Source of the DNA: Candidatus Woesearchaeota archaeon
GTDB taxonomy: Archaea > Nanobdellota > Nanobdellia > SCGC-AAA011-G17 > GW2011-AR17
Reading direction: 5' to 3'
Assembly (NCBI GenBank): GCA_964358335.1
Contig: CAYHOW010000005.1
Span: forward strand, 1-29,663
DNA length: 29,663 bases
A program made the position numbers and the translations under genes. Shown in pieces: positions 4,680-28,048 of this stretch. The notes beneath the pieces were generated by a model that saw nothing but the letters and a program-made list of their open reading frames with translations, did no database searches and had not been told where the DNA came from. The first letter of the stretch is position 1. The number at the start of each line of letters is the position of its first letter.

Positions 4680-5154
4680 TGAGGCGACGCTGGTGCTGGT
4701 GAAGCCCGACGGAGTCATGAGGGGCCTGATAGGGGAGATTGTCAGGAGGTTCGAGCAGAGGGGATTGAAGATTGCCGGACTCAAGATGATGAGGATAGAC
4801 CCTGGCTTCGCCAAGGAGCATTACGTCGAGCATGTCGGCAAGGCATTCTACAATGGGCTGGAAGAGTTCATAACATCCGGTCCGGTAGTGGCGATGGTGG
4901 TGGAAGGCGTGGACGCGGTCGAGCTGGTAAGGAAACTTGTTGGCGCAACAGAGCCCAAGTCAGCCTTGCCTGGCACGATAAGGGGCGACTACGCGCACAT
5001 ATCATACAGCCACGCTGACGAGAAGAAGATCTCAATCAAGAACCTGGTGCACGCATCGGGCAACAAGAAGGATGCCGAGAGGGAAGTCAACCTGTGGTTC
5101 AGCATCGACGAGCTGCACAACTACCCGATGGTCCACGACGAGCACGTCTTGTGA
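4675..5154 (+). CDS. ndk: nucleoside diphosphate kinase
   Basis: MIEATLVLVKPDGVMRGLIGEIVRRFEQRGLKIAGLKMM… NDK fold with NxxHxSD-equivalent (NLVHASGNKKDAE); start placed at ATG 4675 (MIEAT…, typical NDK N-terminus) rather than the upstream ATG 4651. Confidence 0.88.
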   Translation: MIEATLVLVKPDGVMRGLIGEIVRRFEQRGLKIAGLKMMRIDPGFAKEHYVEHVGKAFYNGLEEFITSGPVVAMVVEGVDAVELVRKLVGATEPKSALPGTIRGDYAHISYSHADEKKISIKNLVHASGNKKDAEREVNLWFSIDELHNYPMVHDEHVL

Positions 5155-6511: not shown

Positions 6512-6730
6512 TTCGAGGATTAGAATCGGCGGTTTGTTTAAAAATGTTGCTAATCTGGGAGGCTTTGCACACAAACCCTGCCCTGCACATAAAGTCCATA
6601 TTTGATGGAATTGGCTGAAATCGCACTTGTCGACCTTAGATTGACAAGTTGCACATAAATGCATATAACCTTGTCAATGTTATCTTAGGATTTAAAAAAG
6701 AGCCAAGAAGAATTAGCCTAAAGTCAAATA

Positions 6731-8182
6731 CTACTTATAGAATTTTTTTGCTTCATCAAAAAGTTTAGTCAATTCATTTAAATCTAAATAAACCATCTTT
6801 TTTTGGTCTAACATTTCTAAACATTTGGGAGTAAAACCAGATTTCGAAACAAATAAATAATTGAAACTACCACTTTTATTTATTAATTTGGATTTTTCAT
6901 CTAATTTTTTTATATCTAATACATCCATTGGTTTATTTGTCCATTTAACTTCACAAAGAATAATTTGCCTTGTTTTTGAATTATTAGCTACAATTTCAAT
7001 CTCTTCAGTTACCCCTGCTAAATTTTTTCCCCACCACCAACTAATCTCATCAAAATTAATATGAAGTTCTTTTATATTTTTAGTATTATATAATATTAAT
7101 AATTCTCTTATAATTTCCTCAAATCTAAAACCTATAAAGCTATTCAAATCAGTCTCTATTTTCTTTTTTAATAAGTCCCTTCCTCCGATTTCAATTAAAG
7201 ATAGATTAGGATAAATAAATTTATACCAGAACTGAAAAAAATTATCAATAAATTTATATCTTGGTTTTATATTTCGTGTAGGAAAAAGAGGCTCTGTTTT
7301 TTTAATAAGATTTAAAAGTTCTATTAGGTTAGTGAAGTAGAAATCAATTGAACTTTGAGGAATTCCTGATTTTTCAATTATTTCTTCCCTAGTTCCATTA
7401 CTCTGTGCAATGGCATGTAGTATTGAATTATAGTTAGTTTCTTTCTTTAATTCCATTGTTATAAAATTTGTTGGTTCATCTATTAAAGGAGCAGATCTGC
7501 GTAAAACAAGTTTATTAATAATAGTCATTAAGTCTTTATTCGATTCATCTTTAACAAACCATAAGAAATGCGGTGTACCCCCAAATATAGAATAAAGTTC
7601 TACTTTCTTTGCTTCATCAAGATCTTCAAACATTTCTCTAAAATCAACATATCTAAATGGTTTAAATTCAATTTTTAAGGTCATACGCCCATATAAAGGC
7701 GCTGTTTTTTCCATAAATATATCATACATCATACTCATAGATGATCCAACCGCAAAAAACATTATATTTGTATATTTTAGTTTAGAATCCCAGAAATCTT
7801 GAAACATAGTCAAAAACTCAGGAGATTGTTCTTTTAATCTTGGAAATTCGTCCATTATAAAAATAAATTTTTCCTTAGATGCCTTTCTTTCTAAATATTG
7901 GAAGAAACTTGCCCATTCTACAAAAGTTTCTCTTTCCCCAGTTTGGTCAAAAATAGTATCTGATAATAAGGTCAGTAGTTCTTTTTTATTGGTTTTATTT
8001 ACAAAGTAATAAACTGCATTTTTTTTATCTTCTATAAATTTCTGAATAAATAAAGTTTTTCCGAGCCTTCTTCTTCCATATATGACGCAAAATTCACCCT
8101 TTTTAAGTTCCTTATATCTTCTATCTAAATCTTCTAATTCCTTTCTTCGGTCATAAAATTCCATTTTACCTAGTCTAACCAA
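6731..8182 (-). CDS. AAA+ ATPase of the archaeal Arch_ATPase/DUF234 family (483 aa)
   Basis: Walker A YGRRRLGKT, Walker B IFIMDEF, C-terminal DUF234-like region; coding region is strikingly AT-rich compared with neighbours. Confidence 0.75.
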   Translation of the reverse strand: MVRLGKMEFYDRRKELEDLDRRYKELKKGEFCVIYGRRRLGKTLFIQKFIEDKKNAVYYFVNKTNKKELLTLLSDTIFDQTGERETFVEWASFFQYLERKASKEKFIFIMDEFPRLKEQSPEFLTMFQDFWDSKLKYTNIMFFAVGSSMSMMYDIFMEKTAPLYGRMTLKIEFKPFRYVDFREMFEDLDEAKKVELYSIFGGTPHFLWFVKDESNKDLMTIINKLVLRRSAPLIDEPTNFITMELKKETNYNSILHAIAQSNGTREEIIEKSGIPQSSIDFYFTNLIELLNLIKKTEPLFPTRNIKPRYKFIDNFFQFWYKFIYPNLSLIEIGGRDLLKKKIETDLNSFIGFRFEEIIRELLILYNTKNIKELHINFDEISWWWGKNLAGVTEEIEIVANNSKTRQIILCEVKWTNKPMDVLDIKKLDEKSKLINKSGSFNYLFVSKSGFTPKCLEMLDQKKMVYLDLNELTKLFDEAKKFYK

Positions 8183-8201
8183 AGTAATTTACCTTGTTCT
8201 A

Positions 8202-8297
8202 ACAAGGTGAAGTAATACATATTTATAAACCTTTCTTTTTATTTTACATTCTTTTAACAAGGTTTTTTACCTTACTCTAACAAGGTTATTTTTATTA
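8202..8297. promoter_or_regulatory. Paired palindromic operator-like sites (ACCTTGTT-CT-AACAAGGT at 8202-8219; ACCTTACT-CT-AACAAGGT at 8280-8297; extra AACAAGGT at 8267-8274) flanking a TTTATAAA TATA box (8233-8240) upstream of the AT-rich ATPase gene
   Basis: Perfect 8-2-8 inverted repeat, a near-perfect second copy and a third half-site, all within 120 bp upstream of the minus-strand start at 8182. Confidence 0.35.
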
Positions 8298-8541
8298 ATT
8301 CAAAACTATTTTGAATTAGTAGCCTGATGGCTACAGGCTTTAGAGGACTTTGAAAAATTCCTATTTTTAAAAAGTTTTTCTATTTTCAGCCTGAGTTTGA
8401 CAGTTGTTGCTAATTCTTGAGAATTTTAGCGGAGTGCATGCTCCAGTTCGGCGTTAAGCCTGATTTCTAACCACTTTATGTGCAAAGCCTCCAAATCCGC
8501 AACCTTTAAATATAAGTTGCAGTTTACTTAAGAGAAATAGG

Positions 8542-14312: not shown

Positions 14313-16715
14313 CTAAATGTCCACGTTACTAAAGTCCCACATCAAGTCGAAGAACACATACTCCAATGCTGACTTTGCGCATTTGTCGCAGTACAGCGCC
14401 TTCTTCTTGAGGTTAGTTATTATCCTATCTATCTCCTTTCTTGCAGGCGGATTAATTGACTGGTCCTTCTTGGTGCCTATCCATTGTACGCTCCTCCGCA
14501 ACTCTTCAGGAGTCACTTCCATCTTCTTGATTGCTCCCTTAAGCAATGAGTCATATATGAACTGATAATAGTCATCAAAAAGTTCAGTCACGTCAAGCTG
14601 AGGGATATTATCATATCCTTCTTCTTCTGCCTTAGTCCGAGCTTCCCTGTAGTCCACAGCCAGTTCCAATACAACGTCGCGCCTATGGCTTTCCCTCTGC
14701 TCAAGCATGGAAAACACGCCAATTAAGTCTTCAAGCCAGTTCATCTTCTTCTCGCTTGGCGGCTCATATTCCTTTGTTATCGGGTTGTATACAGTACTAT
14801 TCTCAGCCCAAGCCTGCACGTGAGTTACATACTCGATAATGTTCTTGTCGAGCTCTTCCTTTGGCATGCCTACTATTGCCCACTGCACGTCCTGCTGCAC
14901 TGCAGCATCATACTCATTTATTGCGCTTTCAAGCAAATGTCGTATGTTAAGGTACTTTTTCTCTTCCTTCTTGCTGTAAGTTAAAGCGCCAGGTATCCCG
15001 GACTCAACTATCTTTTCCAATTTTGCCTTGAAATCATTTATGCCGAGGCATACGCACTTCTTGGTCCTGCACTCGATGTCTTCCTTATATCCTATTACGT
15101 CAGTGATAAGGTCCATTATCCTTCTTGGAGATATTCCCGCCATGCCTTCTTTCTCATAGACAACGCCATCTTTTGTGATCTTGACCCCCTGAAGTGGATT
15201 ATGCTCTTCCCTGAGCAACTTTTTTATCATCGGCGCAACAATAAGCTTCTTCTCATAAGTTGCAAGTCCCAAAGGCATCTTGTCGTCGTATATCATTGCC
15301 TTCTGTATTGGAGAGAGATCCTTGATGATATCAAGGGTGTCTTTGTCAGCGCCATTTTCCTTATAGTATTCAGGGCTTGGCTTGTATAGCCTTGTCAGCA
15401 CAGCGAATAACGCAACAAAATCCCTTATGTGTGGCATGATATGCTTATGGTCGCCATGCTCAGGATCCTCGCTGTAACCGGCTTCCTTGAATTTTGATAG
15501 GTATATCTGCTTCTCGTCGGAAATTTTTATTAGGTAAGGGATGTCAAAGGAGCGAGTCCTGTCAAGGAGCGCCTTGTTGATGGCGTCCATCCTTACGGAA
15601 CTAAACCCTTCAATATTTGTGGTGCCTATTATAAGTGTGTCAACTGTTGCCTGCACGCCGTTGAAGTCCTGAATATGCTCCTGGACGGCGGAAAGAAGGT
15701 TGTTGTGCTTAGAGTCTCTCATGAACATATCGCTGAAATGCAGTATGCCCCTGTTGGCATCAACCCATTTGCCTTCAAACTGGTGAAGTGATATGCCGGG
15801 GAAAAGTTCAGCCAGATTCTGGTATGATGCGCCTTCCCTGACAAGCAACTTTGCATTGCCTTCGACGTTCTGGACGGGCTGGACGGTTGCTGCGCCAATC
15901 TGCTCAATCTCAGACACTAGCAGCCTAAGAACTTGGATGTGGTTAAGTACCTTGCCAATGTCACCGTCGTACTTGTCTAGGAGCCTATCATAGATGGTCT
16001 GGCAGTTCTTGCACAATTCATTCTCCAGAAGAATCTTAGGTATGACCACATCCTTGTGGCCGTCATTGACAACTTCCTCAAGATACTTTCTCCTTTTGTC
16101 CTTGGGTATAAGCATTAGCGGATGGTCGTTCATCTGGCAAGGCACCCTGATGAAAAGGTCCTCATCTGCTAGGTGCGCAAGCGACTTAGTATTATTAGAA
16201 TGGTCATGCGGAAGGTTAAATCCGATATTCTCCATGAAACTGTCCTCTACAAAGACCCAATCGAAAGTGTATATGCCCCCGTTACTGGTCCTTGAATAAT
16301 GCTGAAGACCGTTTATCAGAAGTCTTATTATAGAAGTCTTTGCCGTGCCCTGCGGGCCATGGAGAATGATTATCCTCTCATCGCCACCTTTGTTTGCGGT
16401 AGTTTCGATATAATTTACTATTGCTGACACCTGCCTGTCAAGCCCGAAGACAGAATGCTTGCCTAACTCGGAACTTATCTCCCTATCGAAAGGATCATCG
16501 AAGAGCTCGTACCTGATTATCTTCTCTCCGCAGTCAATAATATCGCGTGTGCCAAAATAGTTAATCATGTCTGATATCATCTGGAAAGCGGTCCTTGTGT
16601 AATTGTAAGGATTCATCTCAAGCTTGTGCAGGAATTCGTCGAACGACGCGACATACTTCCTTGCGGCATACTCTTCCCGAACTTCATTCTTTATTACGCT
16701 GAACTTGGTTGCCAT
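14313..16715 (-). CDS. prkA: PrkA-family serine protein kinase (AAA ATPase + PrkA C-terminal domain), paralog 1
   Basis: Walker A ILHGPQGTAKTS, PrkA-typical blocks (CQMNDHPLMLIPKDKRR, FSDMFMRDSK, LIIGTTNIEGF, ALLDRTR); start set to Met 16715 (MATKF…; AGGAGA SD upstream) because the longer ORF (to 16775) would overlap spoVR by 44 nt. Confidence 0.85.
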   Translation of the reverse strand: MATKFSVIKNEVREEYAARKYVASFDEFLHKLEMNPYNYTRTAFQMISDMINYFGTRDIIDCGEKIIRYELFDDPFDREISSELGKHSVFGLDRQVSAIVNYIETTANKGGDERIIILHGPQGTAKTSIIRLLINGLQHYSRTSNGGIYTFDWVFVEDSFMENIGFNLPHDHSNNTKSLAHLADEDLFIRVPCQMNDHPLMLIPKDKRRKYLEEVVNDGHKDVVIPKILLENELCKNCQTIYDRLLDKYDGDIGKVLNHIQVLRLLVSEIEQIGAATVQPVQNVEGNAKLLVREGASYQNLAELFPGISLHQFEGKWVDANRGILHFSDMFMRDSKHNNLLSAVQEHIQDFNGVQATVDTLIIGTTNIEGFSSVRMDAINKALLDRTRSFDIPYLIKISDEKQIYLSKFKEAGYSEDPEHGDHKHIMPHIRDFVALFAVLTRLYKPSPEYYKENGADKDTLDIIKDLSPIQKAMIYDDKMPLGLATYEKKLIVAPMIKKLLREEHNPLQGVKITKDGVVYEKEGMAGISPRRIMDLITDVIGYKEDIECRTKKCVCLGINDFKAKLEKIVESGIPGALTYSKKEEKKYLNIRHLLESAINEYDAAVQQDVQWAIVGMPKEELDKNIIEYVTHVQAWAENSTVYNPITKEYEPPSEKKMNWLEDLIGVFSMLEQRESHRRDVVLELAVDYREARTKAEEEGYDNIPQLDVTELFDDYYQFIYDSLLKGAIKKMEVTPEELRRSVQWIGTKKDQSINPPARKEIDRIITNLKKKALYCDKCAKSALEYVFFDLMWDFSNVDI

Positions 16716-16731
16716 TTTGTTTTTGGTCTCC

Positions 16732-18321
16732 TTATCTCCTTTTAAGGTCCTTGGTCTTAATGTCCTTTCCGTCATAAGTTATAATGACTGGCTTGCCACC
16801 TTCCCTTGTGGCTATATGGACAGTCCTGCCCCACACCTTGAATATGTTCTTCAGGGTCCTGTCCCTCTTGTCTGTCTCGAGAATAGTCTCATCATAAGAC
16901 TTATGGAAAAGCAACAATTCTCTGGAGTTTCCGAAGTTACCATTAATGACCTCAATCACCGGCTCGCCACAGTTAACTAGGGGCGCCATTATAGAGTCCC
17001 TTATCTTTTCAGGGTCCCTGTCATTGATTTTGTACCAGTTGTCCCTTTTGTCCAAGGAAAAATTATAGAACTGCTTCCTTTCAATCAAGTCAGGAGTGAA
17101 GAAAGTTCTTAGGAACTCATAGTCGTCCATGGTGTCCCTCACTTCGAACATCTTCTTCATGCCTTCTCCAGCCTTAGTGTCCCAATTCATTCTCTTCTCA
17201 GCATTGGTCTCACGTTCGAAATTGATTCCATGCCTTCCAGTGTCCCAGCATTCCTTGATATCCTGCCAAATCATGTAGCCGATATAGTAAGGGTTGACCG
17301 AGCCAGGAGCAGTAGCCAATACACTAGCATTTACCTTGCAGTACTGTATGACATCATCCCTAGCGAAACCTAGGTCTTCCATGAACTTCCTGTGCCAGTA
17401 GACAGCCCATCCTTCGTTCATTATCTTGGTCTTCCTTTGCGGAAGGAAATAATAAAACTCGTCCCTGATTATTGAAAGTATATCCCTCTGCCACGGAGTC
17501 ATGCCTTCTCCGTGCTGTATCAGGAACCTCAGGACGTCCCTCTGCGGTATTTTAGGGAACCTATCATTTGCCTTCTCATTGTCAGCGTCAATCTTCTTCA
17601 TCTCATCTATGAAATCCTGGGGATTGATGAAAGGGTCCATGTAAGGACTGCTTATCCTGAGCCTGTACTCGAGATTTTTTTGTTCTTCTTCCACTGTGCT
17701 GTCGCAACATCCGTGGTCGCCACTGCACTTATGGTCTTCGCTACAGCGGCCGCACCCCTTTTTATTTTGTATTACGGGGCTGCCGTCTTCCAGAGGCCTG
17801 AGGTCCAGATATGAAGCATCATAATCAATGAGGTTTTCGAGAGATATAGCAATCTCGATGAACTTCTCGACCTCTTCATACCCGAACTTCTGCTGGTAGA
17901 ACCTTATCATCTCGGCATGGTCTGACATGACATTATGCATGTTCCTGTTAGTCCTTGAGAATAGGTAATTGTTCTTGAAGAAATCCGCATGGCCGTAGAC
18001 ATGCGAGATAACCATCTTCTGTATGACCTGCGGGCTGGTCTCCAAAAGATAAGCTATGCTGGGATTGGTATTTATCACAAGCTCGTATATGTGCGAGAGC
18101 CCATAGCCCTGCTGCTTCTCATAATATTTCTGCTGCATGCCGAAGTACCAGTGCGGGAACCTCTTAGGCATTCCGACGTACGACGTTACTTCCATAAGCG
18201 TATCGAAGTCAACCATGACGAAATGGACAGGAAAATAATCCAGCTTGAACTCATTCCTTGCTATCATATCCATCTCTTTGCTTGCTTCTTTCAATTCTTC
18301 AGTAAGTGGCCCTTGTTTCAT
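16732..18321 (-). CDS. spoVR: SpoVR/YcgB-family protein
   Basis: SpoVR hallmarks: HVYGHADFFKNN, NEGWAVYWH, long conserved C-terminal region; contains a Cys/His-rich insert (GCGRCSEDHKCSGDHGCCDS). Confidence 0.85.
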   Translation of the reverse strand: MKQGPLTEELKEASKEMDMIARNEFKLDYFPVHFVMVDFDTLMEVTSYVGMPKRFPHWYFGMQQKYYEKQQGYGLSHIYELVINTNPSIAYLLETSPQVIQKMVISHVYGHADFFKNNYLFSRTNRNMHNVMSDHAEMIRFYQQKFGYEEVEKFIEIAISLENLIDYDASYLDLRPLEDGSPVIQNKKGCGRCSEDHKCSGDHGCCDSTVEEEQKNLEYRLRISSPYMDPFINPQDFIDEMKKIDADNEKANDRFPKIPQRDVLRFLIQHGEGMTPWQRDILSIIRDEFYYFLPQRKTKIMNEGWAVYWHRKFMEDLGFARDDVIQYCKVNASVLATAPGSVNPYYIGYMIWQDIKECWDTGRHGINFERETNAEKRMNWDTKAGEGMKKMFEVRDTMDDYEFLRTFFTPDLIERKQFYNFSLDKRDNWYKINDRDPEKIRDSIMAPLVNCGEPVIEVINGNFGNSRELLLFHKSYDETILETDKRDRTLKNIFKVWGRTVHIATREGGKPVIITYDGKDIKTKDLKRR

Positions 18322-19499
18322 TTTCCAGTCCCCAAGAATATTTTTAATGCAGCTAATATATCATCTTCGCCAGTTATCCTCGCTGTCATCAGCTTGTCTT
18401 TCTGATTTTTTTTCTCAGCATACTCCTTGATTTCTTTCAGATACACGCCCTCGGTATCAGTCCCGCCGTATACGCGGCCGTAATAGTCGGTGTAAGGCAG
18501 GTCAATCTGGCCGTAGCAGAAAAGGTTTGCCTTAGGCATTATCAAGTCAAGCATCTTGAACTCATCCTTGTTATTTCCCCAGTTATCTCCGTCCGACCAC
18601 TGGAAGCAGTAAATGTTCCACTCTTCAGGATTGAAGAACTGGTTGATGACAAGGTCGCAGAGTTCGTACGCTGAAGCGATTCTCGTCCCGCCAGAAGTCG
18701 ACGTCCTATAGAACTCATAGTAGCTTACCTGCTTAGCAGAGTAGTCATGTATGATATAGATGGACTCTATGCCCTTGTACTGAGACCTAAGGAAAGTATC
18801 AATCCAGAACGACGTCAGCCTGGCTATGCTCTTGTGCCTTTCGCTCATAGAGCCTGAAACATCCATCATATAAATTAATACTGCATCTGACTCGGGCTTT
18901 GTGGTAGTCTTCCACGACCGATACCTCATGTCCTCTTTCCTTATTGTTATTATAGGATCCTCCGGGTCATATTCGCCAGAGGCGATTGTCCTGAACAAGG
19001 CCTGCATGAAGGTAGCCTCGATGCGCAACAAAGCATCAGGGCCTACTGTTCTCGAGCCAGAATACCTGTCGAACTCAGTATATATCCTCTTCTTCCTGCC
19101 TTTATCCTCAACGTTAGGCAGCCCCAACTCTTCCTTCATTATACTTGCAAGAACTTCGAGATTGACCTCAACCTCTATAGAATGCTCACCTTCGCCCTCG
19201 CCGGCTTTCTTACCGTCGCCTTCGCCCTCGCCCTGCTGCCCAGGGAAAAGCTTATCACCTACATTTCCCGGTCCCCTGCCTACTCCACCTTGACCTTCAC
19301 CATCACCTTGGCCATCTTCAGAATTGTCAGGCGCTTTCTTGAACCGGGGAATCTCGACATGTGGCAAAGGTATAGAAATAGTCCCGTCCCTCTTTGGCTT
19401 CAAAATATCGTAGTTCTTGATGATATTCTTGAGGTCTTTCCTTACGCTACCCTTGATGATATCCTCGAATCTTTTTTTGTTCGAGTCTCCGTAAGCCAT
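18318..19499 (-). CDS. yeaH: YeaH/YhbH-family protein (DUF444, vWA-like) with low-complexity Gly/Glu/Asp-rich N-terminal segment
   Basis: DUF444 core (VLIYMMDVSGSMSERHK… = vWA MIDAS-like DxSxS; FCYGQIDL…); N-terminal GQGDGEGQGG…GEGEGDGKKAGEGEGE acidic low-complexity region typical of YeaH/YhbH. Confidence 0.8.
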   Translation of the reverse strand: MAYGDSNKKRFEDIIKGSVRKDLKNIIKNYDILKPKRDGTISIPLPHVEIPRFKKAPDNSEDGQGDGEGQGGVGRGPGNVGDKLFPGQQGEGEGDGKKAGEGEGEHSIEVEVNLEVLASIMKEELGLPNVEDKGRKKRIYTEFDRYSGSRTVGPDALLRIEATFMQALFRTIASGEYDPEDPIITIRKEDMRYRSWKTTTKPESDAVLIYMMDVSGSMSERHKSIARLTSFWIDTFLRSQYKGIESIYIIHDYSAKQVSYYEFYRTSTSGGTRIASAYELCDLVINQFFNPEEWNIYCFQWSDGDNWGNNKDEFKMLDLIMPKANLFCYGQIDLPYTDYYGRVYGGTDTEGVYLKEIKEYAEKKNQKDKLMTARITGEDDILAALKIFLGTGK

Positions 19500-19504
19500 T
19501 TCAA

Positions 19505-21610
19505 TTACCTGTTACGGGCATCTCCTCTTGCAAAGATGCTTGAAGCGGCCTCAAGGACTCTTCCAGCACAGACATCGCAATACCCGAACTCCTTCTTAAG
19601 ATTAGCCTTGATAAGGTCTATTTTCTCCATTTCTTCCTTGGTCCGGACTTCCTTGAACAGGGCGCTGAAATTAATCAAGTCTTTCTTTTCCTCGAAAAGC
19701 TTCAGCACAAGCCCGCGGTAAAGCGTCTCGTTAGTGTCATAGTTGAGCTGCTCCTTGCCCAAGGCGCACCTGGATATGAACGATACAATGCCGGACCTGA
19801 AATTGTCTTTCATAGCTTCGGTAATCTCAATTTTCTCCTCGATGCTTCTCATGAGCTTCTCGTCAGGATCGATCATCCTATGCGGCTGGAACGGATCCCG
19901 AAGCTTCTTCTTCTCGATGTAAGCTTGGAGGTTGTCAAGATACTTTGTGAACAGCGACCGGAGCTCTTCAGGGTTGTTGACTACTGCTCTGTTGACCTCA
20001 TCCTTGATTATCTCAAGGTACTGACCCTGTGACAACTTCAACAAAGCCTTATACTCCTTAATAGTCTCTTCGCTGTTTAAAATGGCGGACTTGTCAAGCA
20101 GCATCTCTATCTGGGCATAGACCTGGAATGGGTTCAAGCAGGACTCATCACGGTTTTTTACTGAGGCATCTCCTATTGCGTCAATGATGAACCTTGTTGA
20201 AATCCCATCCAATCCTTCCCTTTTTGCTTCTCTGATTAGTTTCCTCACATAGTTATCATCTTTATCGGGGAACTTTCTGCCATTGTAAAGCCACATCTTC
20301 TGGACCTTGCCAAGGCCGTCGTCGTTCGCCTCTTTTGGAGCCTCAAGCCTCGTAAGTTCGGCAAAGATTGATGCAAGCTGGAAAGTGTGGGGTGCGATGT
20401 GCTTCCTGACCTTTCCCGGCGTGAAAATCTTACCATAAATTTTCTCTTCTTGATCAAGCACTAAGTTGTAAGGGACATCGTACCTTGATGTCCTGTCCTT
20501 GAAAGCCTTCATAAGCTCGTCTTCCAGCAGCTTCCTGAACTCTTCCTCGTTCGTGTGCCCAAGAATGACCAAGTCGACATCAGTAAGCGCGAACTTCTTC
20601 GGCTTGATCTTCTGTTCCTGTGAAGCGACTAATAAATCGTAAAGGAATGCCCTCTCAAGCTTCAATATTTCTATGAACTCGATGATGCCCCTATTTGCTA
20701 CACAGAGCTCACCATTGAAGTTGAATGCTCTCGGATCCGAGTCGGAACCTAAGATAGCAATCCTTCTGAAATCCATACTGCCTGTAAGGTCAGCGGCATC
20801 CTGGTTTTTCTCATCTTTGGGCTGGAAAGTTCCGATGCCCCTCCTGTCGCCTTCGGAAATGAAGAACCTGAAAACCTTGATATGGTTCATGACCTTGTCC
20901 CAGTCTCCGCCATAGTGTGCCATAAGCATGTCATAGTTGAACCTGCAGTGCGGGCAGAGCTGCCCAATAATATCAATAGGATACTTGACTTTCTCATTGT
21001 TCCTGTTTGCGTCGTTTATGCTCCTTACGAGGTCAGGCCTCCTTGAGACATCCACCAGCTTCAATGGATCTTCATGCAGTTCGCACTCATGGTCGTACAG
21101 CTTGACAACTCCTACGCCTGGGGCATCTACAGTGAACCCAGAATTCTTGTCATCGTAATTGCCAAGGCCTAACCACCTGAATGTGTAGATGGGGTCTACG
21201 TGCGAATTGTTCTCTAAGCCTCTCTTAAGTAACGTTGCGATTGTGCTCTTTGCGCTAGCCACGGGCCCATGCAACAGCAATACTCTTTTCTCCTTGCCTA
21301 GCTTATGTGCTGCCGCATCGAAATGGTTGACAATATTTTCGAGGTGCTCATCAATGCCGAACAACGAATTCTCGGAGGGCGTTCCGTCGGGCTGGAGGTC
21401 CATGAAGAAATGGTAAGCTTTTACCTCATCCCCGAACCTCTTGTACTTCTGCGAACCTTTCTCAATAATCATATCGAATACCCTTTGGTTGGCGTTCCTT
21501 ACTGGCCTTGCATTTTCGTGCAGCAAGTCTAAGTACTCATGCATAGTTATCTCGCGCAAACCTGCATACTTTTCGATTTTACCGCCGAATTTAGAACTCG
21601 TTTCTGACAT
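19505..21610 (-). CDS. prkA: PrkA-family serine protein kinase, paralog 2 (shorter form)
   Basis: Walker A LLHGPVASAKST, PrkA blocks (CPHCRFNYDMLMAHYGGDW, ILGHTNEEEF); ATG at 21610 preceded by AGAGGT SD with ~10-nt spacing (the track ORF start at 21622 is a GTG). Confidence 0.8.
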   Translation of the reverse strand: MSETSSKFGGKIEKYAGLREITMHEYLDLLHENARPVRNANQRVFDMIIEKGSQKYKRFGDEVKAYHFFMDLQPDGTPSENSLFGIDEHLENIVNHFDAAAHKLGKEKRVLLLHGPVASAKSTIATLLKRGLENNSHVDPIYTFRWLGLGNYDDKNSGFTVDAPGVGVVKLYDHECELHEDPLKLVDVSRRPDLVRSINDANRNNEKVKYPIDIIGQLCPHCRFNYDMLMAHYGGDWDKVMNHIKVFRFFISEGDRRGIGTFQPKDEKNQDAADLTGSMDFRRIAILGSDSDPRAFNFNGELCVANRGIIEFIEILKLERAFLYDLLVASQEQKIKPKKFALTDVDLVILGHTNEEEFRKLLEDELMKAFKDRTSRYDVPYNLVLDQEEKIYGKIFTPGKVRKHIAPHTFQLASIFAELTRLEAPKEANDDGLGKVQKMWLYNGRKFPDKDDNYVRKLIREAKREGLDGISTRFIIDAIGDASVKNRDESCLNPFQVYAQIEMLLDKSAILNSEETIKEYKALLKLSQGQYLEIIKDEVNRAVVNNPEELRSLFTKYLDNLQAYIEKKKLRDPFQPHRMIDPDEKLMRSIEEKIEITEAMKDNFRSGIVSFISRCALGKEQLNYDTNETLYRGLVLKLFEEKKDLINFSALFKEVRTKEEMEKIDLIKANLKKEFGYCDVCAGRVLEAASSIFARGDARNR

Positions 21611-21776
21611 TTGTATTTTCACCTCTTAATTATCGGTTTTGTCTAATTTTTTAATATAATTTTAATATTGCTCTGAAAGAGCGTATTTCTGGTATCATAA
21701 AGAAGAGAATGTGCATTAAAAAGCTTGTGACAAAATAGAGTAACATTTATAAAATCTGACATATTTAATGGAATAA

Positions 21777-22436
21777 ATGGCACATACAACAAAAGAGGTA
21801 AAGCATATCCTAACAAATGACATAGCGGTCCAGAGCTGCCTTGCGAGGGATCTTATCAACGTGCGCGGGCTTGCCAAATACATCATAGACAAGTACAAGC
21901 TCAACGCTTCCGTGGATTCCGTCATAAGCGCGATAAGGCGTTTCGATGCAAGCTGCGAATTCTATTCCCACCACAACAGGATAAAGGACTTGTTTGCCGG
22001 CTCCTCGATAAAGACGACGACTAACCTGTCCGTCATAGACATCATAGGCAGGAACGACATCAGGAAATGCCTGGACCAGTTCAATTCGCTTGTGGACATA
22101 GACAAGGGCGACACGCTAAGGCTAGTCAAGGGCAACAACCACATGCGGGTCATAGTAGACGAGCACAACCTGCCCAAGCTGAAGGAAGCTTTCATACTTT
22201 ACGACAAGGTCAATGTGATAAACAATCTGGTAGAGCTCAGCATAATCTCTAAGTCGACAGATAGCCTCAATGAGACGAAGGGCGTCATGGCGAGGATATC
22301 GAACGAGATGGCGATGCAGAACGTCAACATAGTGGAGATGATATTCAACGCAGACACCATAAGCATCTATGTCGACAAGAAGGACTACGTCAATGCGAAC
22401 AGCATCCTTGTCTCTCTTTCGGAGATAAATATATAG
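21777..22436 (+). CDS. putative regulatory protein: N-terminal HTH-like segment plus C-terminal ACT-like small-molecule-binding domain(s), tentative
   Basis: N-terminal DLINVRGLAKYIIDKY resembles an HTH; C-terminal alternating beta/alpha hydrophobic pattern (LSIISKSTDSLNETKGVMARISNEMAMQNVNIVEMIFNADTISIYVD) typical of ACT domains; divergent from the prkA operon promoter, TATA (CATTTATAAAA) ~25 nt upstream. Confidence 0.4.
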   Translation: MAHTTKEVKHILTNDIAVQSCLARDLINVRGLAKYIIDKYKLNASVDSVISAIRRFDASCEFYSHHNRIKDLFAGSSIKTTTNLSVIDIIGRNDIRKCLDQFNSLVDIDKGDTLRLVKGNNHMRVIVDEHNLPKLKEAFILYDKVNVINNLVELSIISKSTDSLNETKGVMARISNEMAMQNVNIVEMIFNADTISIYVDKKDYVNANSILVSLSEINI

Positions 22437-22651
22437 ACTATTAATATCCGAATGAGAAAGTGAGGATTGATTTTAGCGATATCCAAAGCATCTCGCATTC
22501 TTTTGCTGATGAAATCTTAAAAAATAAGATGAATAACATTCAGTTTTCTAATTTGAATCCAAATATTAAAAAGATGTTTGAAATAATCGGAAAAAGATAT
22601 TCGAAGTAAAAGGAAAGCTTTTTATATTACCCGAGGGATTTCTAACGTAAA

Positions 22652-24364
22652 ATGATAAGGCAGCCCATAGTGGTGTTGGTAGGCCATATTGACCACGGCA
22701 AGAGCTCAATACTCGAGAGGCTGAAGGAGATAGTGGTGACTAAGCAGGAGGCCGGCGGCATCACGCAGACCATAAGGTCGTACAACCTGCCTATAGACAT
22801 GATACAGAAGAAATGCAAGGACTTATTGAAAGAGAAGGCATTCTCAGTCCCGGGACTGGTCATTCTTGATACTCCAGGGCATGCGGCGTTCAACAACATG
22901 AGGAAGCGCGGCGGCAACTTGGCCGACATAGCAATCCTGGTCATTGACGTCAACGAGGGCATAATGCCGCAGACGGTGGAGTCGATAGAAGTATTGAAAG
23001 CTTACAAGACTCCGTTCATAGTAGCATTGAACAAGATAGACAACATCAGCGGCTGGTACAGCCAGCCTGACAAGCATCTCAAGGCTAGCTTGGAGAACCA
23101 GAACGAGGCAGTCAAGCGCGTTTTCGACACGAAGTTCTACGAGATAGTAGGGAAGATTTACGAGAGGGGATTTGTCGGAGAGAGGTACGACAGGATAGAG
23201 GACTTCACCAAGCAGGTCGCCATAGTCCCTTGCTCGGCGAAGACAGGCGAGGGCATACCCGAGCTGTTGATGGTCCTAGTTGGTCTGGCCCAGAAGTTCC
23301 TGGAGCAGAGCCTGGAGACAAGCGTCGACAAGCCTGGGCACGGGACAATCCTGGAAGTGAAGGACGAGAAAGGCATAGGGACGATTTTGGATGCTGTAAT
23401 CTATGACGGCCAGATAAGGAGGGGCGACCAGATAGTCATCGGGGGCATCAGCGAGCCGATAGTCACGAAGATAAGGGGATTGTTCGAGGCTGAGAGAGGC
23501 AAGATGAAGCCCATAGAGAGCGCCAATGCGGCTGCGGGAGTTAGGATCGTCGCTCCGGACGTCAAGGGCGTCGTATCCGGCATGCCATTATTGGTTGCGA
23601 ATTCCAATCTTGAGGATGCTAAAGAGAAAGTGCAGGACGAGGTCGATGAGGTCGTCATCGAGACTGACAACGAAGGGGTTGTTGTGAAAGCTGATTCTTT
23701 AGGCTCCTTGGAAGCTTTGATAGGATTATTGAAAGAGAAGGGCATCAGCATCAAGAAAGCCTCTGTAGGGGAGATAACCAAGAAGGACCTGGCAGACGCG
23801 AGCGCAGAGGAGGAGCCGCTGAACAAGGTCATTTTGGCTTTCAATGTTTCCCCAGTAGAGGCGAAAGATGTGAAAATAATTTCAAATAATGTAATATACA
23901 AGATAATAGAGGATTATGTTTCATGGCAGGAAGAGGAGAGGAAGAAGCAGGAAGAGAAGAATCTTGAGAGCCTCATAAGGCCTGCGAAGATGGAAATCAT
24001 CAAGGGCTGCATATTCAGGCAGAGCAACCCGTGCGTGGTCGGAGTGAGGATACTTGAAGGCACGCTTAAGCCGGACGTCGAGCTGATGAAAGCCAACGGG
24101 AACAAGGCGGGCTACGTCAAGAGCATGCAGGTCGAGAACGAGACCGTGAAGAGCGCCGAGAGGGGGAAAGAGGTAGCCATCTCAATCCCAGGAATAATTG
24201 GCGGAAGGCAAATCTTAGAGATGGACATACTTTATGTCGACATGCCGGAACAGCATTTCCGCGATTTGAAGAAGTTCAAGAAGCTGTTGAAGCCAGCGGA
24301 GATAGAATTATTGAAGGAGATAGCCGAGATAAAGCGGAAGGAAAACAACCTCTGGGGCGTTTAG
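22652..24364 (+). CDS. infB: translation initiation factor aIF5B (IF-2 homolog)
   Basis: G domain VVLVGHIDHGKSSILERL (G1), DTPGH (G3), NKID (G4), SAKTGEGI (G5), followed by beta-barrel and C-terminal domains; 570 aa typical of archaeal aIF5B. Confidence 0.9.
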   Translation: MIRQPIVVLVGHIDHGKSSILERLKEIVVTKQEAGGITQTIRSYNLPIDMIQKKCKDLLKEKAFSVPGLVILDTPGHAAFNNMRKRGGNLADIAILVIDVNEGIMPQTVESIEVLKAYKTPFIVALNKIDNISGWYSQPDKHLKASLENQNEAVKRVFDTKFYEIVGKIYERGFVGERYDRIEDFTKQVAIVPCSAKTGEGIPELLMVLVGLAQKFLEQSLETSVDKPGHGTILEVKDEKGIGTILDAVIYDGQIRRGDQIVIGGISEPIVTKIRGLFEAERGKMKPIESANAAAGVRIVAPDVKGVVSGMPLLVANSNLEDAKEKVQDEVDEVVIETDNEGVVVKADSLGSLEALIGLLKEKGISIKKASVGEITKKDLADASAEEEPLNKVILAFNVSPVEAKDVKIISNNVIYKIIEDYVSWQEEERKKQEEKNLESLIRPAKMEIIKGCIFRQSNPCVVGVRILEGTLKPDVELMKANGNKAGYVKSMQVENETVKSAERGKEVAISIPGIIGGRQILEMDILYVDMPEQHFRDLKKFKKLLKPAEIELLKEIAEIKRKENNLWGV

Positions 24365-24404
24365 AAAGCTTAATATATTCTATATATATGATTTGTTTCT
24401 TATT

Positions 24405-24478
24405 GGGCCCATAGCATAACCCGGATATTGCAGTCGCCTTCGGAGCGATTGGCGCAGGTTCAAATCCTGCTGGGCTCA
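24405..24478 (+). tRNA. tRNA-Arg (anticodon UCG), 74 nt, no encoded CCA
   Basis: Manual fold: acceptor GGGCCCA/TGGGCTC (one G-U), T-arm GCAGG-TTCAAAT-CCTGC, anticodon stem GTCGC/GCGAT with loop CTTCGGA (U33, anticodon TCG, G37), D-loop with GG; antisense ORF 24276..24479 shows the classic GFEPAP tRNA-antisense artefact. Confidence 0.75.
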
Positions 24479-24502
24479 TCCATATCGATTAGCAGGGGCA
24501 AA

Positions 24503-24889
24503 ATGAAAAAGGGAATGGATAGTGAAGGGAGAGCTGTCTACAAGTTCAGCCATGGTGTGTGCCAAGGCGGATATCTATACGGGCATAAGACGAAAGAGGG
24601 CTTTACCATAGAAGACAAGGAAGGGCTGAAGAAAGCACTTAGCGCAGTTGCAGAGCGATATGGGCTGATGGATGTAACAATAAAAGCCTATGATGATGTT
24701 TTCTTTATTTTCTTCATGATGAGGCCGTCTCTTGCGCCGCAGAAGATAATCGACAGCATACAGAAAGAGATAGGGCAGATTTCAGAATGGCCTGAAGACT
24801 ATATCTTCAATGGCATTTCAGATTTGCGCAAAAAGAGCATCGAGGAAGAGCTGAATAAGTTGGGGATGAAAGATGAGCAAGGGCAATGA
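24503..24889 (+). CDS. IS200/IS605-like Y1 (HuH) transposase homolog lacking the HuH motif and C-terminal catalytic Tyr (probably inactive/domesticated), tentative
   Basis: N-terminal AVYKFSHGVCQGGYLYGH aligns by eye with TnpA N-termini (e.g. VLYKSNHNVVYSCKYH); the block MDVTIKAYDDVFFIFFMMRPSLAPQKIIDSIQKE occupies the position of …DHIHMLLEIPPKMSVSSFMGYLKGK… but His-u-His is replaced by VFFIF; start moved to Met 24503 because the upstream part of the track ORF overlaps the tRNA. Confidence 0.45.
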   Translation: MKKGMDSEGRAVYKFSHGVCQGGYLYGHKTKEGFTIEDKEGLKKALSAVAERYGLMDVTIKAYDDVFFIFFMMRPSLAPQKIIDSIQKEIGQISEWPEDYIFNGISDLRKKSIEEELNKLGMKDEQGQ

Positions 24890-25268
24890 GCAGATTTGCA
24901 GCGTCTGCAAAGAGAAAAACAACAGGGAAATATGCGATAGATACAGAGATCTTATAAAAAATGGCGCTTCCGAAGAGGCGGTTAAGCGGATGCTGTCCGA
25001 CAAGGAAACAAACAAGGTATGGGAAGAGAACAAGCACACCGCTAACATCCTAGCTGACGCATATTATGAGAGCATCCTTGATGAATTTAAAGGGGAGATG
25101 AAGAAAAGCAGCAAAGAAACTTTTGGCTACAACACATTTGCCGAAGGCATAACTATTGCACTTGACATCATAATGCCTATGCTGGACAAAGAATCTAGGG
25201 CAGTCGTAAAAAGAAAGATAGACATGATGATTAGTGCAAGGAAAAAGCATGGGAAGGGGAGAAAATGA
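24873..25268 (+). CDS. hypothetical protein (131 aa), Cys-containing N-terminus (CSVCKEKNNREIC)
   Basis: ORF overlaps upstream gene by 17 nt and downstream gene by 4 nt (translational coupling); coding-like composition. Confidence 0.5.
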   Translation: MSKGNEQICSVCKEKNNREICDRYRDLIKNGASEEAVKRMLSDKETNKVWEENKHTANILADAYYESILDEFKGEMKKSSKETFGYNTFAEGITIALDIIMPMLDKESRAVVKRKIDMMISARKKHGKGRK

Positions 25269-25885
25269 GAACCATAAAGACGTACGCATTGAGCGAAGAC
25301 ACATTGGAGAAGGACTTGGACAAGTTCATCAGGGCGGCAAAGGGAGGAGCATACCAGTTCGATTATAAGTGCGGCGGCGAAGGCCTGAAACTTATCAAGG
25401 CGTATTTCAGGATGATAGAGGCCGAATACAAGCAGGACAATTATGCCGTAGCAAGGGCGTGCTACAAGAATCTCATGTTCCTCCTGCTGCAAAGTGATTA
25501 TAACTACTTCAATTATGAGGACATCGTTGGCAAGCTGAATTTTGAGAAGTTCATAGGGAACTATTTCACATGCCTGATTCATACATGCGATGCCGATGAG
25601 CTGTTCAAGGAGTATGTCGAATACCTAAAGGTTAAAGTGGATTATGGCTTTGATTCTGCGCATGTCACGATAATCAACAGCCTGCCCGAGCCCAGCTTAA
25701 GCCGGTTCATGGAGTTAGTTACCAAGGAGGCAGAAAATGTAACAGAAGAGGATTATGCAATGCATGACATGATAGACTTACTGCTGGACATGGCCAAGTC
25801 AAGGAGCAATAAGGAAGAGTTTGATAGGCTATCAAAGAAATATGAGCATATACTTGGAGATGATATGGACGGAGAGCTTGCCTAA
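25265..25885 (+). CDS. hypothetical protein (206 aa)
   Basis: ORF in tight overlap chain (ATGA overlaps on both sides); no recognised motif. Confidence 0.55.
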   Translation: MRTIKTYALSEDTLEKDLDKFIRAAKGGAYQFDYKCGGEGLKLIKAYFRMIEAEYKQDNYAVARACYKNLMFLLLQSDYNYFNYEDIVGKLNFEKFIGNYFTCLIHTCDADELFKEYVEYLKVKVDYGFDSAHVTIINSLPEPSLSRFMELVTKEAENVTEEDYAMHDMIDLLLDMAKSRSNKEEFDRLSKKYEHILGDDMDGELA

Positions 25886-26310
25886 TGACCAAACTATACA
25901 TCGACACCAACATACTCATCTATGCTATTGAAGATAGCTTGAATCCCTTCGGAAAAGATATCAGCACATCCTCATCAAAGCTGTTTGGGGAAGCAGCTTC
26001 ATGCAAATATCAAGTAATCATATCGACATGGGCCCTTAGCGAAGTAAGAAGAATCAGGAACATCGATGATTTGGACATGCTGCTGAAAATCGTGGAAAAG
26101 AAAATAATCATCCAAAAGTACACGAAAGAGGATGTTGAACAGGCAAAAAGGCAGAATTCAGATCATTTTCAGGACGAGCTTCATGGAATGCTCGCATTAC
26201 GGGCAGGAGCGGATTACATCGTTACAAGGAACGTTGACGATTTCAAGCATCTCAACAAACAGATTAAGGCAGTAAAACCAGAACAATTACTTAAGCCCAG
26301 CTCTTCTTAA
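25885..26310 (+). CDS. PIN-domain nuclease (VapC-like)
   Basis: N-terminal LYIDTNILIYAIED (first acidic PIN residue), ISTWALSEV (middle), C-terminal ADYIVTRNVDDFK (distal Asp), the classic PIN pattern. Confidence 0.75.
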   Translation: MTKLYIDTNILIYAIEDSLNPFGKDISTSSSKLFGEAASCKYQVIISTWALSEVRRIRNIDDLDMLLKIVEKKIIIQKYTKEDVEQAKRQNSDHFQDELHGMLALRAGADYIVTRNVDDFKHLNKQIKAVKPEQLLKPSSS

Positions 26311-27456
26311 CAATTCATCCTGATAGGCGTTTTCACCATTCTCTGCCCTAATCTTCTCAAGCTTTTCATTCTGCTTACGCAATTCAACTTTATCTGCAGG
26401 TTTGGCTTTCTTGCGAATGGCTTTTATCTGCTGATACAGAGCGTCAGATGGCTCTTCTTCCTTTGGAATCAAGCACTGCAGTTCAGTGCCCAGCTCTATA
26501 ATCTCATCTTCCTGCTGCACAATGTCAAGATAGAAGTAAGACTTCAGTGCCTCTTCAGTATAGTACTTATGCTCCGACAGCTCTTTCTTGAAATTAAATA
26601 AAGCGATATATTTCCATATAGCCTCGAACAATAATATGAAATTCCTCTTGTGCTTGATGATTACATCAGCGTCAAATCCGCTATAGGCATCGAACATCAT
26701 GTCATGATAGGCGTCAAGAATATCGTCGTATTCCTTCCTTGAATCCTTGGGGCTGGCATCATATAGCCTCTTCAAAAATTTCAGGATGACAAATATTGAA
26801 TTCTTAGGATGTTCATCGAACTCCTTCGAATATAATATTGAGAGTATCTTTTCCTTGATTTCGTACAGGCTTTTAGGCTCTTCATGATACTGGATCTGCT
26901 TAACCTGATAAGCATACTGTACCTTGGAATATTCGACAGTTGTTGTCCTAATGAAAGTTTCAATCTTGGCAGGAAGGCCAGAATATGCATAATCCACATC
27001 ATTGTCAAAGATGAATATGTCAATTCCGCCATATTGGTACCATGCCCTTGGAAGGTGGTCCAATTCCTTAAAAGAATTGATTACTTTATATGCAATCTTC
27101 TTCGCATGTGTATTGGTCAATGGCTTGCTTGTTGACTCATTCCAGAACTTTTTTATTAAATAGTATAGCGAATTAAAATCCTTCTCCGCCTTATCAGTGA
27201 GGGGGAGTCCAAAATAGGTTTTGGATTTGTTGGCGCGGGCAAGCGTAAGCATCTTGCTGGGCCCTACATTCTCTTCATGCAACAAGCCAATATCCACAAG
27301 AATCTTTATGTATCTTGATACTGCAGTCCTATCAATGCTCATCTCCTCAGCTATTTCAGCAACCGATTTAGGACCCTTTGCCAAGCACTCAAAAATCTTC
27401 CTGATAAGAACCTGCGTAGAGCCCCTTCCCATAGTATATCGGTAAGATACAGGCAT
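26287..27456 (-). CDS. large winged-HTH protein (MarR/ArsR-like N-terminus + ~300-aa alpha-helical domain of unknown function)
   Basis: VAEIAEEMSIDRTAVSRYIKILVDIGLL wHTH motif near N-terminus; long Tyr/Lys/Glu-rich C-terminal region with no recognised motif; 3' end overlaps the PIN gene 3' end convergently. Confidence 0.6.
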   Translation of the reverse strand: MPVSYRYTMGRGSTQVLIRKIFECLAKGPKSVAEIAEEMSIDRTAVSRYIKILVDIGLLHEENVGPSKMLTLARANKSKTYFGLPLTDKAEKDFNSLYYLIKKFWNESTSKPLTNTHAKKIAYKVINSFKELDHLPRAWYQYGGIDIFIFDNDVDYAYSGLPAKIETFIRTTTVEYSKVQYAYQVKQIQYHEEPKSLYEIKEKILSILYSKEFDEHPKNSIFVILKFLKRLYDASPKDSRKEYDDILDAYHDMMFDAYSGFDADVIIKHKRNFILLFEAIWKYIALFNFKKELSEHKYYTEEALKSYFYLDIVQQEDEIIELGTELQCLIPKEEEPSDALYQQIKAIRKKAKPADKVELRKQNEKLEKIRAENGENAYQDELLRRAGLK

Positions 27457-27579
27457 ATAAAAAGGTTTTGTTTTAAAGAGATAAATAGATTCATCTTAAA
27501 GGTTATGTTGCTAAATAGCATTAAAACTTATAAGCTCGGGGCTATTTATAGAAATAACCAATTAAAGGAGGATGAAACA

Positions 27580-27774
27580 ATGGTTCAAAGAATATTCGGG
27601 CTTGGGCTCGGCGCAACAGGGATTGTAGGCACCCTGATTATCGCAGGAATCCTGCTAAAAGTGACAAACACTTCAGCAGGAACAGGGGACGTAGCTATCT
27701 TTAGCGGCATAGGGATAGGCTCCGTATTAGGCCTGCTAGGCATCGTTGCCGTTGCGAAGAGAGTAATGAAGTGA
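27580..27774 (+). CDS. small membrane protein (64 aa, two Gly-rich TM helices)
   Basis: GGAGGA SD 8 nt upstream of ATG 27580; MVQRIFGLGLGATGIVGTLIIAGILL…GIGIGSVLGLLGIVAVAKR. Confidence 0.5.
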   Translation: MVQRIFGLGLGATGIVGTLIIAGILLKVTNTSAGTGDVAIFSGIGIGSVLGLLGIVAVAKRVMK

Positions 27775-27778
27775 AACC

Positions 27779-28048
27779 ATGAAAGGGACAGTAACTAGGA
27801 TTATAGACGGAGACACATTCTGCGTGAACAGAAAGGTAGACGGCACAAACAAGATCAGGCTTGAGAACGTCAATGCACCGGAGAGGTCATCTATTGGCGG
27901 ACCGAAAGCCACTAACATCTTGCGAGGCCTGATTGGCGGGCAGACTGTGACAATAAACCCTGTAGGCAGAAGCTATGACAGGATTGTCGCAAAAGTGTCA
28001 AACGAAAGGAAAAGCATCAACAAGAGAATGATAGAAAAGGGATACTGA
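27779..28048 (+). CDS. minimal staphylococcal-nuclease (SNase/thermonuclease)-like protein, 89 aa
   Basis: VTRIIDGDTFCV… then IRLENVNAPE (cf. SNase …V.DGDT…IRL.GIDAPE) and SYDRIVAKV (cf. YGRxLAYV); overlaps downstream small gene at 28048. Confidence 0.65.
   Translation: MKGTVTRIIDGDTFCVNRKVDGTNKIRLENVNAPERSSIGGPKATNILRGLIGGQTVTINPVGRSYDRIVAKVSNERKSINKRMIEKGY

Follow-up and report, generated by a model that had tools for sequence, protein, structure and literature searches.

What kind of system, if it is a single system at all, is encoded by the four overlapping genes that follow a tRNA-Arg(UCG) gene on the chromosome of a DPANN archaeon? The window that we analysed is the whole 29,663-nt stretch of contig CAYHOW010000005.1 (assembly GCA_964358335.1, Candidatus Woesearchaeota archaeon), a piece of archaeal chromosome that encodes, among others, FtsZ, Spt5, L7Ae, S28e, NDK, GrpE/DnaK/DnaJ-type chaperones, ClpP and aIF5B, and whose homologues come from Woesearchaeota/Nanoarchaeota groundwater metagenomes. 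Contigs identical to it occur in the Hainich groundwater samples. The four genes are referred to hereafter as g1 to g4. The reading that we favour, and to which we give about an even chance of being correct, is that the locus is a modular accessory patch of the defence-island type, in which a trio of non-catalytic proteins (g1, g2 and g3) has been joined to a PIN-domain effector (g4), and that it is no dedicated four-component machine. The features on which this reading is built are the following:

tRNA-Arg(UCG): 24405-24478, forward strand; Rfam RF00005 at 61.6 bits, called by ARAGORN as tRNA-Arg(tcg) at 24404-24482
g1: 24503-24889, forward strand; 128 amino acids (aa), a dead IS200/IS605-type Y1 (HuH) transposase-fold protein
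g2: 24873-25268, forward strand; 131 aa, an N-terminal zinc ribbon followed by a helical domain
g3: 25265-25885, forward strand; 206 aa, a DPANN-specific alpha-solenoid (TPR/SNAP-like), predicted adaptor or scaffold
g4: 25885-26310, forward strand; 141 aa, a nuclease with a PIN_3 domain that is predicted to act as an Mg2+-dependent RNase, either effector or toxin
Winged-helix gene: 26287-27456, reverse strand; 389 aa, convergent with g4, matching Pfam HTH_20 and HTH_5

The layout given in a preliminary description of this DNA, a tRNA-Arg(UCG) followed by four same-strand overlapping open reading frames (ORFs), was borne out in its coordinates by ARAGORN, Rfam and the reading of the ORFs, with overlaps of exactly 17, 4 and 1 nt at the g1/g2, g2/g3 and g3/g4 junctions. 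All four are real genes, as there are homologues for g1, g2 and g3 and a score above the Pfam PIN_3 gathering cutoff for g4. The NCBI annotation lists g1, g2, g3 and the winged-helix protein as hypothetical and g4 as a "PIN domain-containing protein". Missing from the preliminary description was the convergent 389-aa gene, which overlaps the 3' end of the PIN gene by 24 nt. That description had also taken the overlaps to imply stoichiometric co-expression, for which there is little support: of the 27 pairs of adjacent same-strand genes in the window, 10 overlap, among them pairs in the DnaK/DnaJ and PrkA operons, so that overlap is a habit of this compact genome and only weak evidence for stoichiometric complexes. 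Joint transcription of g1-g4 is nevertheless probable, and the tRNA promoter may drive it, since the gap between the tRNA and g1 is a mere 24 nt.

Whether the four genes travel as a unit can be judged from other genomes. We fetched 43 loci around homologues (about 40 after removal of duplicates, given as L numbers in what follows) and mapped the window proteins onto all of them. All four genes together were found in no other organism among these loci, an outcome that the preliminary description had itself named as one that would refute its proposal; L028, which holds g1 and the start of g2, is a short contig of the same organism. What does recur is smaller combinations, in several arrangements:

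g1 directly before g2: L027, L029, L030 and L037, in addition to the window
g1-SWIM(482 aa)-g2-g3, with 4-nt overlaps: L023
g1 directly before g3: L032 and L040-43
g3-PRiA4_ORF3-g1: L003 (where g1 is a fragment), L012 and L016
g3-PIN-(convergent HTH): L009 only, besides the window

The linkage of g1, g2 and g3 in shuffled order across diverged genomes points to a functional relationship among them and not to a rigid operon, while a PIN gene follows g3 in 2 of about 24 distinct g3 loci (the window and L009). The 482-aa protein found between g1 and g2 (L023 1443-2891 and L024 13-1461) carries a SWIM zinc finger and a long helical C-terminal region; it occurs in two lineages with 4-nt overlaps, is missing from the window, and could be a fourth component that some g1-g2-g3 sets include and others do without. 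In L040, at 4617-4994 (and likewise in L041-L043), we located a full-length g1 homologue of 127 aa and 42% identity directly 5' of g3 that is uncalled in the source annotation, so that counts of the g1 family taken from protein databases are underestimates. Searches of the neighbouring ORFs with hidden Markov models of the three family profiles revealed no hidden paralogues of g1, g2 or g3.

The region also appears to turn over quickly. The aIF5B gene next to it is 94% identical between the window and L006/L007, which are contigs of one sample and not necessarily of one genome, whereas identities in the same-sample relatives (L006/L007 and L009, again not necessarily one genome) are 65% for g1, 60% for g3, 29% for the PIN protein and 26% for the winged-helix protein. 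Since these genes are far more diverged than aIF5B, and since the gene after g1 in L006 differs from that in the window, the region is best described as fast-turnover and accessory. A scan with two peptide patterns, which is no DPANN-specific census, returned 11 matching loci among 185,579 species-representative bacterial and archaeal genomes.

The neighbourhoods of the homologues indicate what sort of accessory region this is. Among the loci with enough flanking sequence, a striking share are type I restriction-modification (R-M) operons, with gene orders as follows:

L032: HsdR-x-HsdM-YhcG-x-g2-HsdS-RQC/HTH_40-g1-g3-OB
L014 and L017: HsdS-g3-(Bro-N)-HsdM
L023: HsdR C-terminus-g1-SWIM-g2-g3
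L021, L033 and L035: HsdM ... g2
L025: g2-HsdS
L038: g3-x-x-HsdM
L040/41: HsdM-YhcG-x-x-HsdS-x-g1-g3

Other immediate neighbours of g3 include Fic with a winged helix-turn-helix (wHTH) protein, PD-(D/E)XK nucleases, MNT/HepT pairs, Bro-N, RhuM, SEC-C-motif proteins, UPF0158 and a type IIG R-M enzyme. This combination of R-M genes and toxin-type genes is the signature of defence islands, and the defence-type setting proposed in the preliminary description is thus upheld through the homologues, which lie near type I R-M, Fic, HEPN/MNT and PD-(D/E)XK genes. A stand-alone RQC+HTH_40 gene stands directly before g1 in L032, and another belongs to the cluster around g3 in L008, where g1 is missing. 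A search of the literature on co-occurrence with PRiA4_ORF3, UPF0158, SEC-C or DUF3800 turned up nothing useful.

Accessory genes in type I R-M operons are a familiar phenomenon, examples being the PrrC/RloC anticodon nucleases, YhcG/DUF1016, Fic, RhuM and Bro-N. The g1-g3 homologues resemble these in lying between hsdR, hsdM and hsdS beside YhcG, Bro-N and AlbA_2, but differ from them in having no nuclease, ATPase or other catalytic domain and, for the copy in the window, in having no R-M genes alongside.

The first protein of the trio is g1. Taken as a single sequence it gives sub-threshold matches to Pfam Y1_Tnp (E 0.082, 13.5 bits against a cutoff of 23), together with further weak matches that are consistent with it (NCBIfam IS200 at E 0.046 and a PHROG transposase at E 0.38). 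We ran phmmer exhaustively against 1.8 billion cluster representatives and collected 40 that are related to g1, 25 of them at E <= 1e-10; one apparent relative, the 2667-aa P0112, which matched in 7 stretches, was dropped as a repeat protein of low complexity. A family profile built from 22 relatives (A2) matches over its full length the solved TnpA structures 2fyx, 2f4f, 2ec2, 2xo6, 2vhg and 2a6m with E-values of 7e-7 to 0.03, and 7 of the 22 family members match Pfam Y1_Tnp individually, the best at 2.6e-10. At the level of sequence profiles, the homology of g1 to the IS200/IS605 Y1 transposases is therefore established, and the first ORF does not fall in an unrelated family.

The preliminary description had also supposed that the catalytic residues are gone, and the motif alignment agrees. 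When g1 is aligned by hmmalign with the Sulfolobus and Deinococcus enzymes, the position of the HuH motif is occupied by V66-F67-F68, the counterpart of the nucleophilic tyrosine is E116 and that of the glutamine of the C-terminal helix (Y-x3-Q) is L120, while the conserved tryptophan and the structural tyrosine of the beta4 region are kept (W96 and Y100). Close relatives show the same losses, with I/V-F-F at the HuH site; HuH is retained only in the distant members P0114 (HVH) and P0120 (HFH), and the catalytic tyrosine is absent in P0114, P0120 and P0082 as well as in every other family member inspected. The family consists of full-length proteins, uniformly about 125 aa long and with these substitutions in common, which implies that g1 is under purifying selection and is no pseudogene. 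Two relatives, P0098 and P0100, carry RecQ-type RQC+HTH_40 DNA-binding modules fused to the g1 domain. We consider it most likely that g1 is a non-cleaving binder of structured or single-stranded DNA, as predicted from its fold and these fusions.

It is useful to set g1 against the known relatives of this fold. It is like IS200/IS605 TnpA (PF01797; 2a6m/2vhg of IS608, 2xo6 of ISDra2 and 2f4f/2ec2 of Sulfolobus) in length, order of secondary structure and profile, and unlike it in having neither the HuH histidines nor the nucleophilic tyrosine and the glutamine. The locus also differs from IS200/IS605 elements, as it has no subterminal hairpins or tnpB partner, contains a single copy of g1 in the window, and places g1 between a tRNA and g2. 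Like the RAYT (TnpA-REP) proteins, g1 is related to IS200 TnpA, is fixed in the chromosome as a single copy and presumably serves the host. RAYTs retain HuH and the tyrosine and are flanked by repetitive extragenic palindromic (REP) sequences, as described in two accounts (PMC8266576, PMC6006769); g1 has neither motif and no flanking REP-like palindromes. With g1 failing on HuH, tyrosine, hairpin/REP and copy number, neither transposase nor RAYT is the right label for it. A published census of TnpA(Y1) deliberately retained none but the proteins with both motifs, and in Archaea it met the IS200 subclass alone (PMC6006769), so that the g1 branch lies outside its coverage.

The second protein of the trio, g2, has 5 homologues at 52-60% identity and is found in a further 12 metagenome loci. 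The homologues carry an N-terminal CxxC...CxxC ribbon and, in the helical domain that follows, an invariant GYNTFA motif (alignment A3). In the window copy (residues 9-24 of the protein encoded from 24873-24945) the fourth cysteine is replaced by tyrosine, while the aligned homologues P0078-P0081 keep it, and zinc binding may therefore be impaired in this copy. No match of g2 in Pfam, NCBIfam or the PDB rose above threshold, and its AlphaFold2 (AF2) model is all-helical and poor (pLDDT 66.5), which makes it unreliable and too poor for a structure search. A hit of g2 to the PADLOC Cas10 model (E 1.4e-4, 18.8 bits) was rejected as noise, isolated matches to Sey1_3HB, Triabin and NrdE were set aside as inconsistent between libraries and far below cutoffs, and the ORF after g1 in L006 was considered as a candidate g2 and rejected as no homologue.

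For g3 we found 74 homologues with identities of 45-66% across Woesearchaeota/Nanoarchaeota, so that the protein is highly conserved. Scans of Pfam and NCBIfam detected no Pfam domain in it and no DNA-binding domain (RHH, AbrB, Phd or HTH). Its AF2 model is confident (pLDDT 87.9) and depicts an 11-helix solenoid with no catalytic fold, from which g3 is predicted to be a TPR-like adaptor or scaffold. When the g2 and g3 profiles were compared with the PDB, the outcome was either no match or artefacts from repeat proteins, and it was set aside. As single sequences, g1, g2 and g3 produced no hit above threshold in Pfam, NCBIfam, PHROGs or PADLOC.

The last product of the series had been called a PIN nuclease, and this prediction stands: g4 matches Pfam PIN_3 at E 2e-6 and 29.1 bits (gathering cutoff 27), with an intact acidic tetrad (D7, E53, D97 and D118) that it has in common with the 29%-identical PIN protein found after g3 in L009. 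The protein encoded convergently at 26287-27456 has an N-terminal ArsR/MarR-type winged helix (HTH_20 and HTH_5, E ~4e-7) and an uncharacterised C-terminal domain, and a 26%-identical winged-helix homologue is likewise convergent to the g3-PIN pair in L009; it is possible that this protein is a regulator. Like a VapBC locus, the pair has a PIN nuclease with its acidic tetrad and an overlapping upstream gene. It is not a VapBC pair, as had already been surmised, because the upstream partner is a 206-aa alpha-solenoid without an RHH, AbrB, Phd or HTH domain of the antitoxin type, is no VapB-type antitoxin, and is mostly found without a PIN gene.

The position beside a tRNA had been put forward as a sign of an integration hotspot. 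The adjacency is real, with 24 nt from the 3' end of the tRNA to the start codon of g1 and about 20 nt after the same tRNA in the relative L006/L007, but neither a second copy of the tRNA 3' end nor an integrase turned up in the 5.2 kb downstream, and integration at this tRNA is not supported. Specifically, the 3' 22-mer of the tRNA occurs a single time at <= 3 mismatches, and no integrase-like ORF is present in 24.5-29.7 kb, that is up to the end of the window, beyond which a far boundary could lie. There were no subterminal or IS200-like hairpins and no flanking short repeats, and REP-like palindromes were absent from 22400-27700. Candidate att repeats, terminators, short hairpins and promoters of the bacterial type did not exceed the shuffled expectation. 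The tRNA-g1 adjacency is seen in this lineage only (the window and L006/L007, with aIF5B 94% identical), and the other loci of these families that were scanned have their genes more than 5 kb from any tRNA, so that the adjacency reflects the synteny of one lineage and does not belong to the module as such.

With so short a spacing an archaeal promoter would not fit between the tRNA and g1, and the recurrence of this spacing in both genomes suggests a tRNA-mRNA co-transcript that would be processed by RNase Z or RNase P. A TATA-like A/T-rich stretch at ~24371-24389, roughly 20-30 nt 5' of the tRNA, may serve as the promoter, and read-through from it into g1 is plausible. A GGGG/GG purine patch precedes the ATG of g1 in the window (24455-24510) and in L006 (4640-4685). 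We also observed that L006 (3890-4597) and L007 (4096-4803) carry a 235-aa LAGLIDADG_3 homing-endonuclease gene between aIF5B and the tRNA-Arg that is missing from the window (24365-24404), a presence/absence polymorphism adjoining the cassette.

Several other explanations would account for part of these observations. Along the lines of the preliminary description, the genes could form one integrated four-component toxin-antitoxin or abortive infection (Abi) system, with the PIN protein as its toxin and g3, together with g1 and g2, as a dedicated multi-subunit antitoxin or sensor that translational coupling would keep in fixed ratios. The three consecutive start/stop overlaps, the intact PIN active site and the recurrence in L009 of g3-PIN with its overlap and the same convergent HTH gene are what one would expect of it; however, outside this organism the four genes were not seen together, g3 is followed by PIN in no more than the 2 of ~24 distinct loci noted above, g1, g2 and g3 are found with many other partners and in other orders, gene overlaps are common throughout this genome, g3 has no DNA-binding antitoxin domain, and a g3 that is 60% identical in L009 beside a PIN that is 29% identical is unlike a co-evolving cognate pair. 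We regard such a system as rather unlikely. Of comparably low probability is the proposal that these are conserved DPANN housekeeping or regulatory proteins (of repair, replication, chromatin or transcription) residing in insertion-tolerant regions, with the PIN gene as an unrelated neighbour. Here the patchy distribution and variable order and location (the 11 loci in 185,579 genomes of the two-pattern scan), the repeated occurrence inside hsd operons between S, M and R genes, and an accessory-like divergence far above that of the neighbouring core gene are difficult to reconcile with housekeeping, even though g3 is highly conserved across Woesearchaeota/Nanoarchaeota, the genes of the window and of L027 lie among core genes (e.g., aIF5B and a class I aminoacyl-tRNA synthetase), no defence model is matched, and the RQC/HTH_40 link points to DNA metabolism.

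The trio might also modulate restriction instead of acting as an effector against invaders, be it in alleviation or control or by guarding the type I enzyme and sensing when it is inhibited, and be stranded here without its R-M partner. Genes placed between hsdS, hsdM and hsdR in several genomes, and non-enzymatic proteins that fit regulators or adaptors, would suit this role, but many loci, the window, L027, L012, L016 and L039 among them, have no R-M gene in the fetched flanks and there is no similarity to known controller or anti-restriction proteins, which makes the proposal quite improbable. Very unlikely, finally, is that the locus is the remnant of a mobile element at tRNA-Arg, either a degenerate IS200/IS605 transposon or an integrative element, with g1 a decaying transposase and the rest cargo. 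The tRNA-adjacent position, the derivation of g1 from a transposase family, the difference of the region between relatives with 94%-identical aIF5B, and a G+C content of the cassette region slightly below that of the flanking core genes (0.39-0.44 vs. 0.45-0.50) all lend themselves to this explanation. Set against them, g1 is not decaying, as the ~125-aa full-length family with shared substitutions attests; no integrase, tRNA 3'-end repeat, subterminal hairpin or REP-like repeat was found; the tRNA-g1 spacing is kept in the relative while other family loci have no tRNA; and none of g1, g2 and g3 was found on IMG/VR viral contigs.

The modular, defence-island reading with which we began would divide the locus in two. 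One module would be g1-g2-g3, three DPANN-specific proteins without enzymatic motifs, and the other the PIN_3 RNase with its convergent winged-helix regulator. In this scheme g1 and g2 would recognise nucleic acid, g3 would bridge them to whichever nuclease is encoded alongside (a type I R-M complex elsewhere, PIN here), and the trio would tune or license the activity of that nuclease during invasion by foreign DNA. Domain content, gene fusions and neighbourhoods are what suggest the DNA binding, the physical complex, the control of a nuclease and the role in defence.

Several observations weigh against this reading. The window itself contains no R-M genes, and the link to R-M is thus made by the homologues only. 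Comparison of g1-g3 with PADLOC-DB v2 returned only noise (g2 at the E of 1.4e-4 given above, the others at E >= 0.01). The conservation of g3 (45-66%) is unusually high for a gene involved in conflict, and g3 is also present without g1 or g2, which equally fits a housekeeping adaptor tolerated in variable regions. Many of the comparison contigs are short, so that the absence of a partner is often uninformative.

A more specific and decidedly speculative version, which we think improbable, is that g1-g2-g3 constitute a new DPANN-specific sensing module in which the dead transposase recognises single-stranded DNA (ssDNA) hairpins of invaders and licenses interchangeable nucleases. The hairpins would come from IS200/IS605 elements, rolling-circle plasmids or ssDNA viruses, and the signal would pass via the zinc-ribbon protein and the TPR-like adaptor to a type I enzyme, PIN, PD-(D/E)XK or HEPN protein. 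By analogy, this would be a domestication of a transposase into an immune sensor, with a logic like that of the TnpB-derived regulators but for TnpA.

Elsewhere in the window, the G+C content falls sharply to 0.28 in 6500-8500 (vs. 0.45-0.53 on either side), coinciding with a gene at 6731-8182 on the reverse strand that encodes a 483-aa archaeal ATPase (ATPase_2 + DUF234) and is probably a recent horizontal acquisition. The reverse strand of 14313-21622 carries a PrkA - DUF444 (YeaH-like) - SpoVR - PrkA operon with 44- and 4-nt overlaps and two PrkA paralogues. PrkA-DUF444-SpoVR is a conserved module associated with stress and sporulation, known mostly from bacteria and haloarchaea. An 89-aa ORF at 27779-28048, in the company of small predicted membrane proteins and a VKOR homologue, resembles the staphylococcal nuclease (SNase) domain, but its match is confined to the first two-thirds of that domain, counted from the N-terminus.

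Taken together, the protein families and their linkage to R-M genes are new, while the evidence does not bear out a four-gene "system", and the mechanism is put forward as a proposal. Should the sensing role prove untrue, the result would still be a useful annotation, namely that the "operon" is a mosaic and no system. A branch of the TnpA fold is now documented in which neither catalytic motif remains and which selection maintains as a host gene in single copy. It is accompanied by two further uncharacterised families, the three being linked to one another, having no Pfam, NCBIfam or PADLOC model, and adorning the type I R-M operons and toxin-rich islands of DPANN archaea. If the trio does couple the sensing of DNA to interchangeable nucleases, it would represent a new principle for the regulation of restriction or abortive infection.

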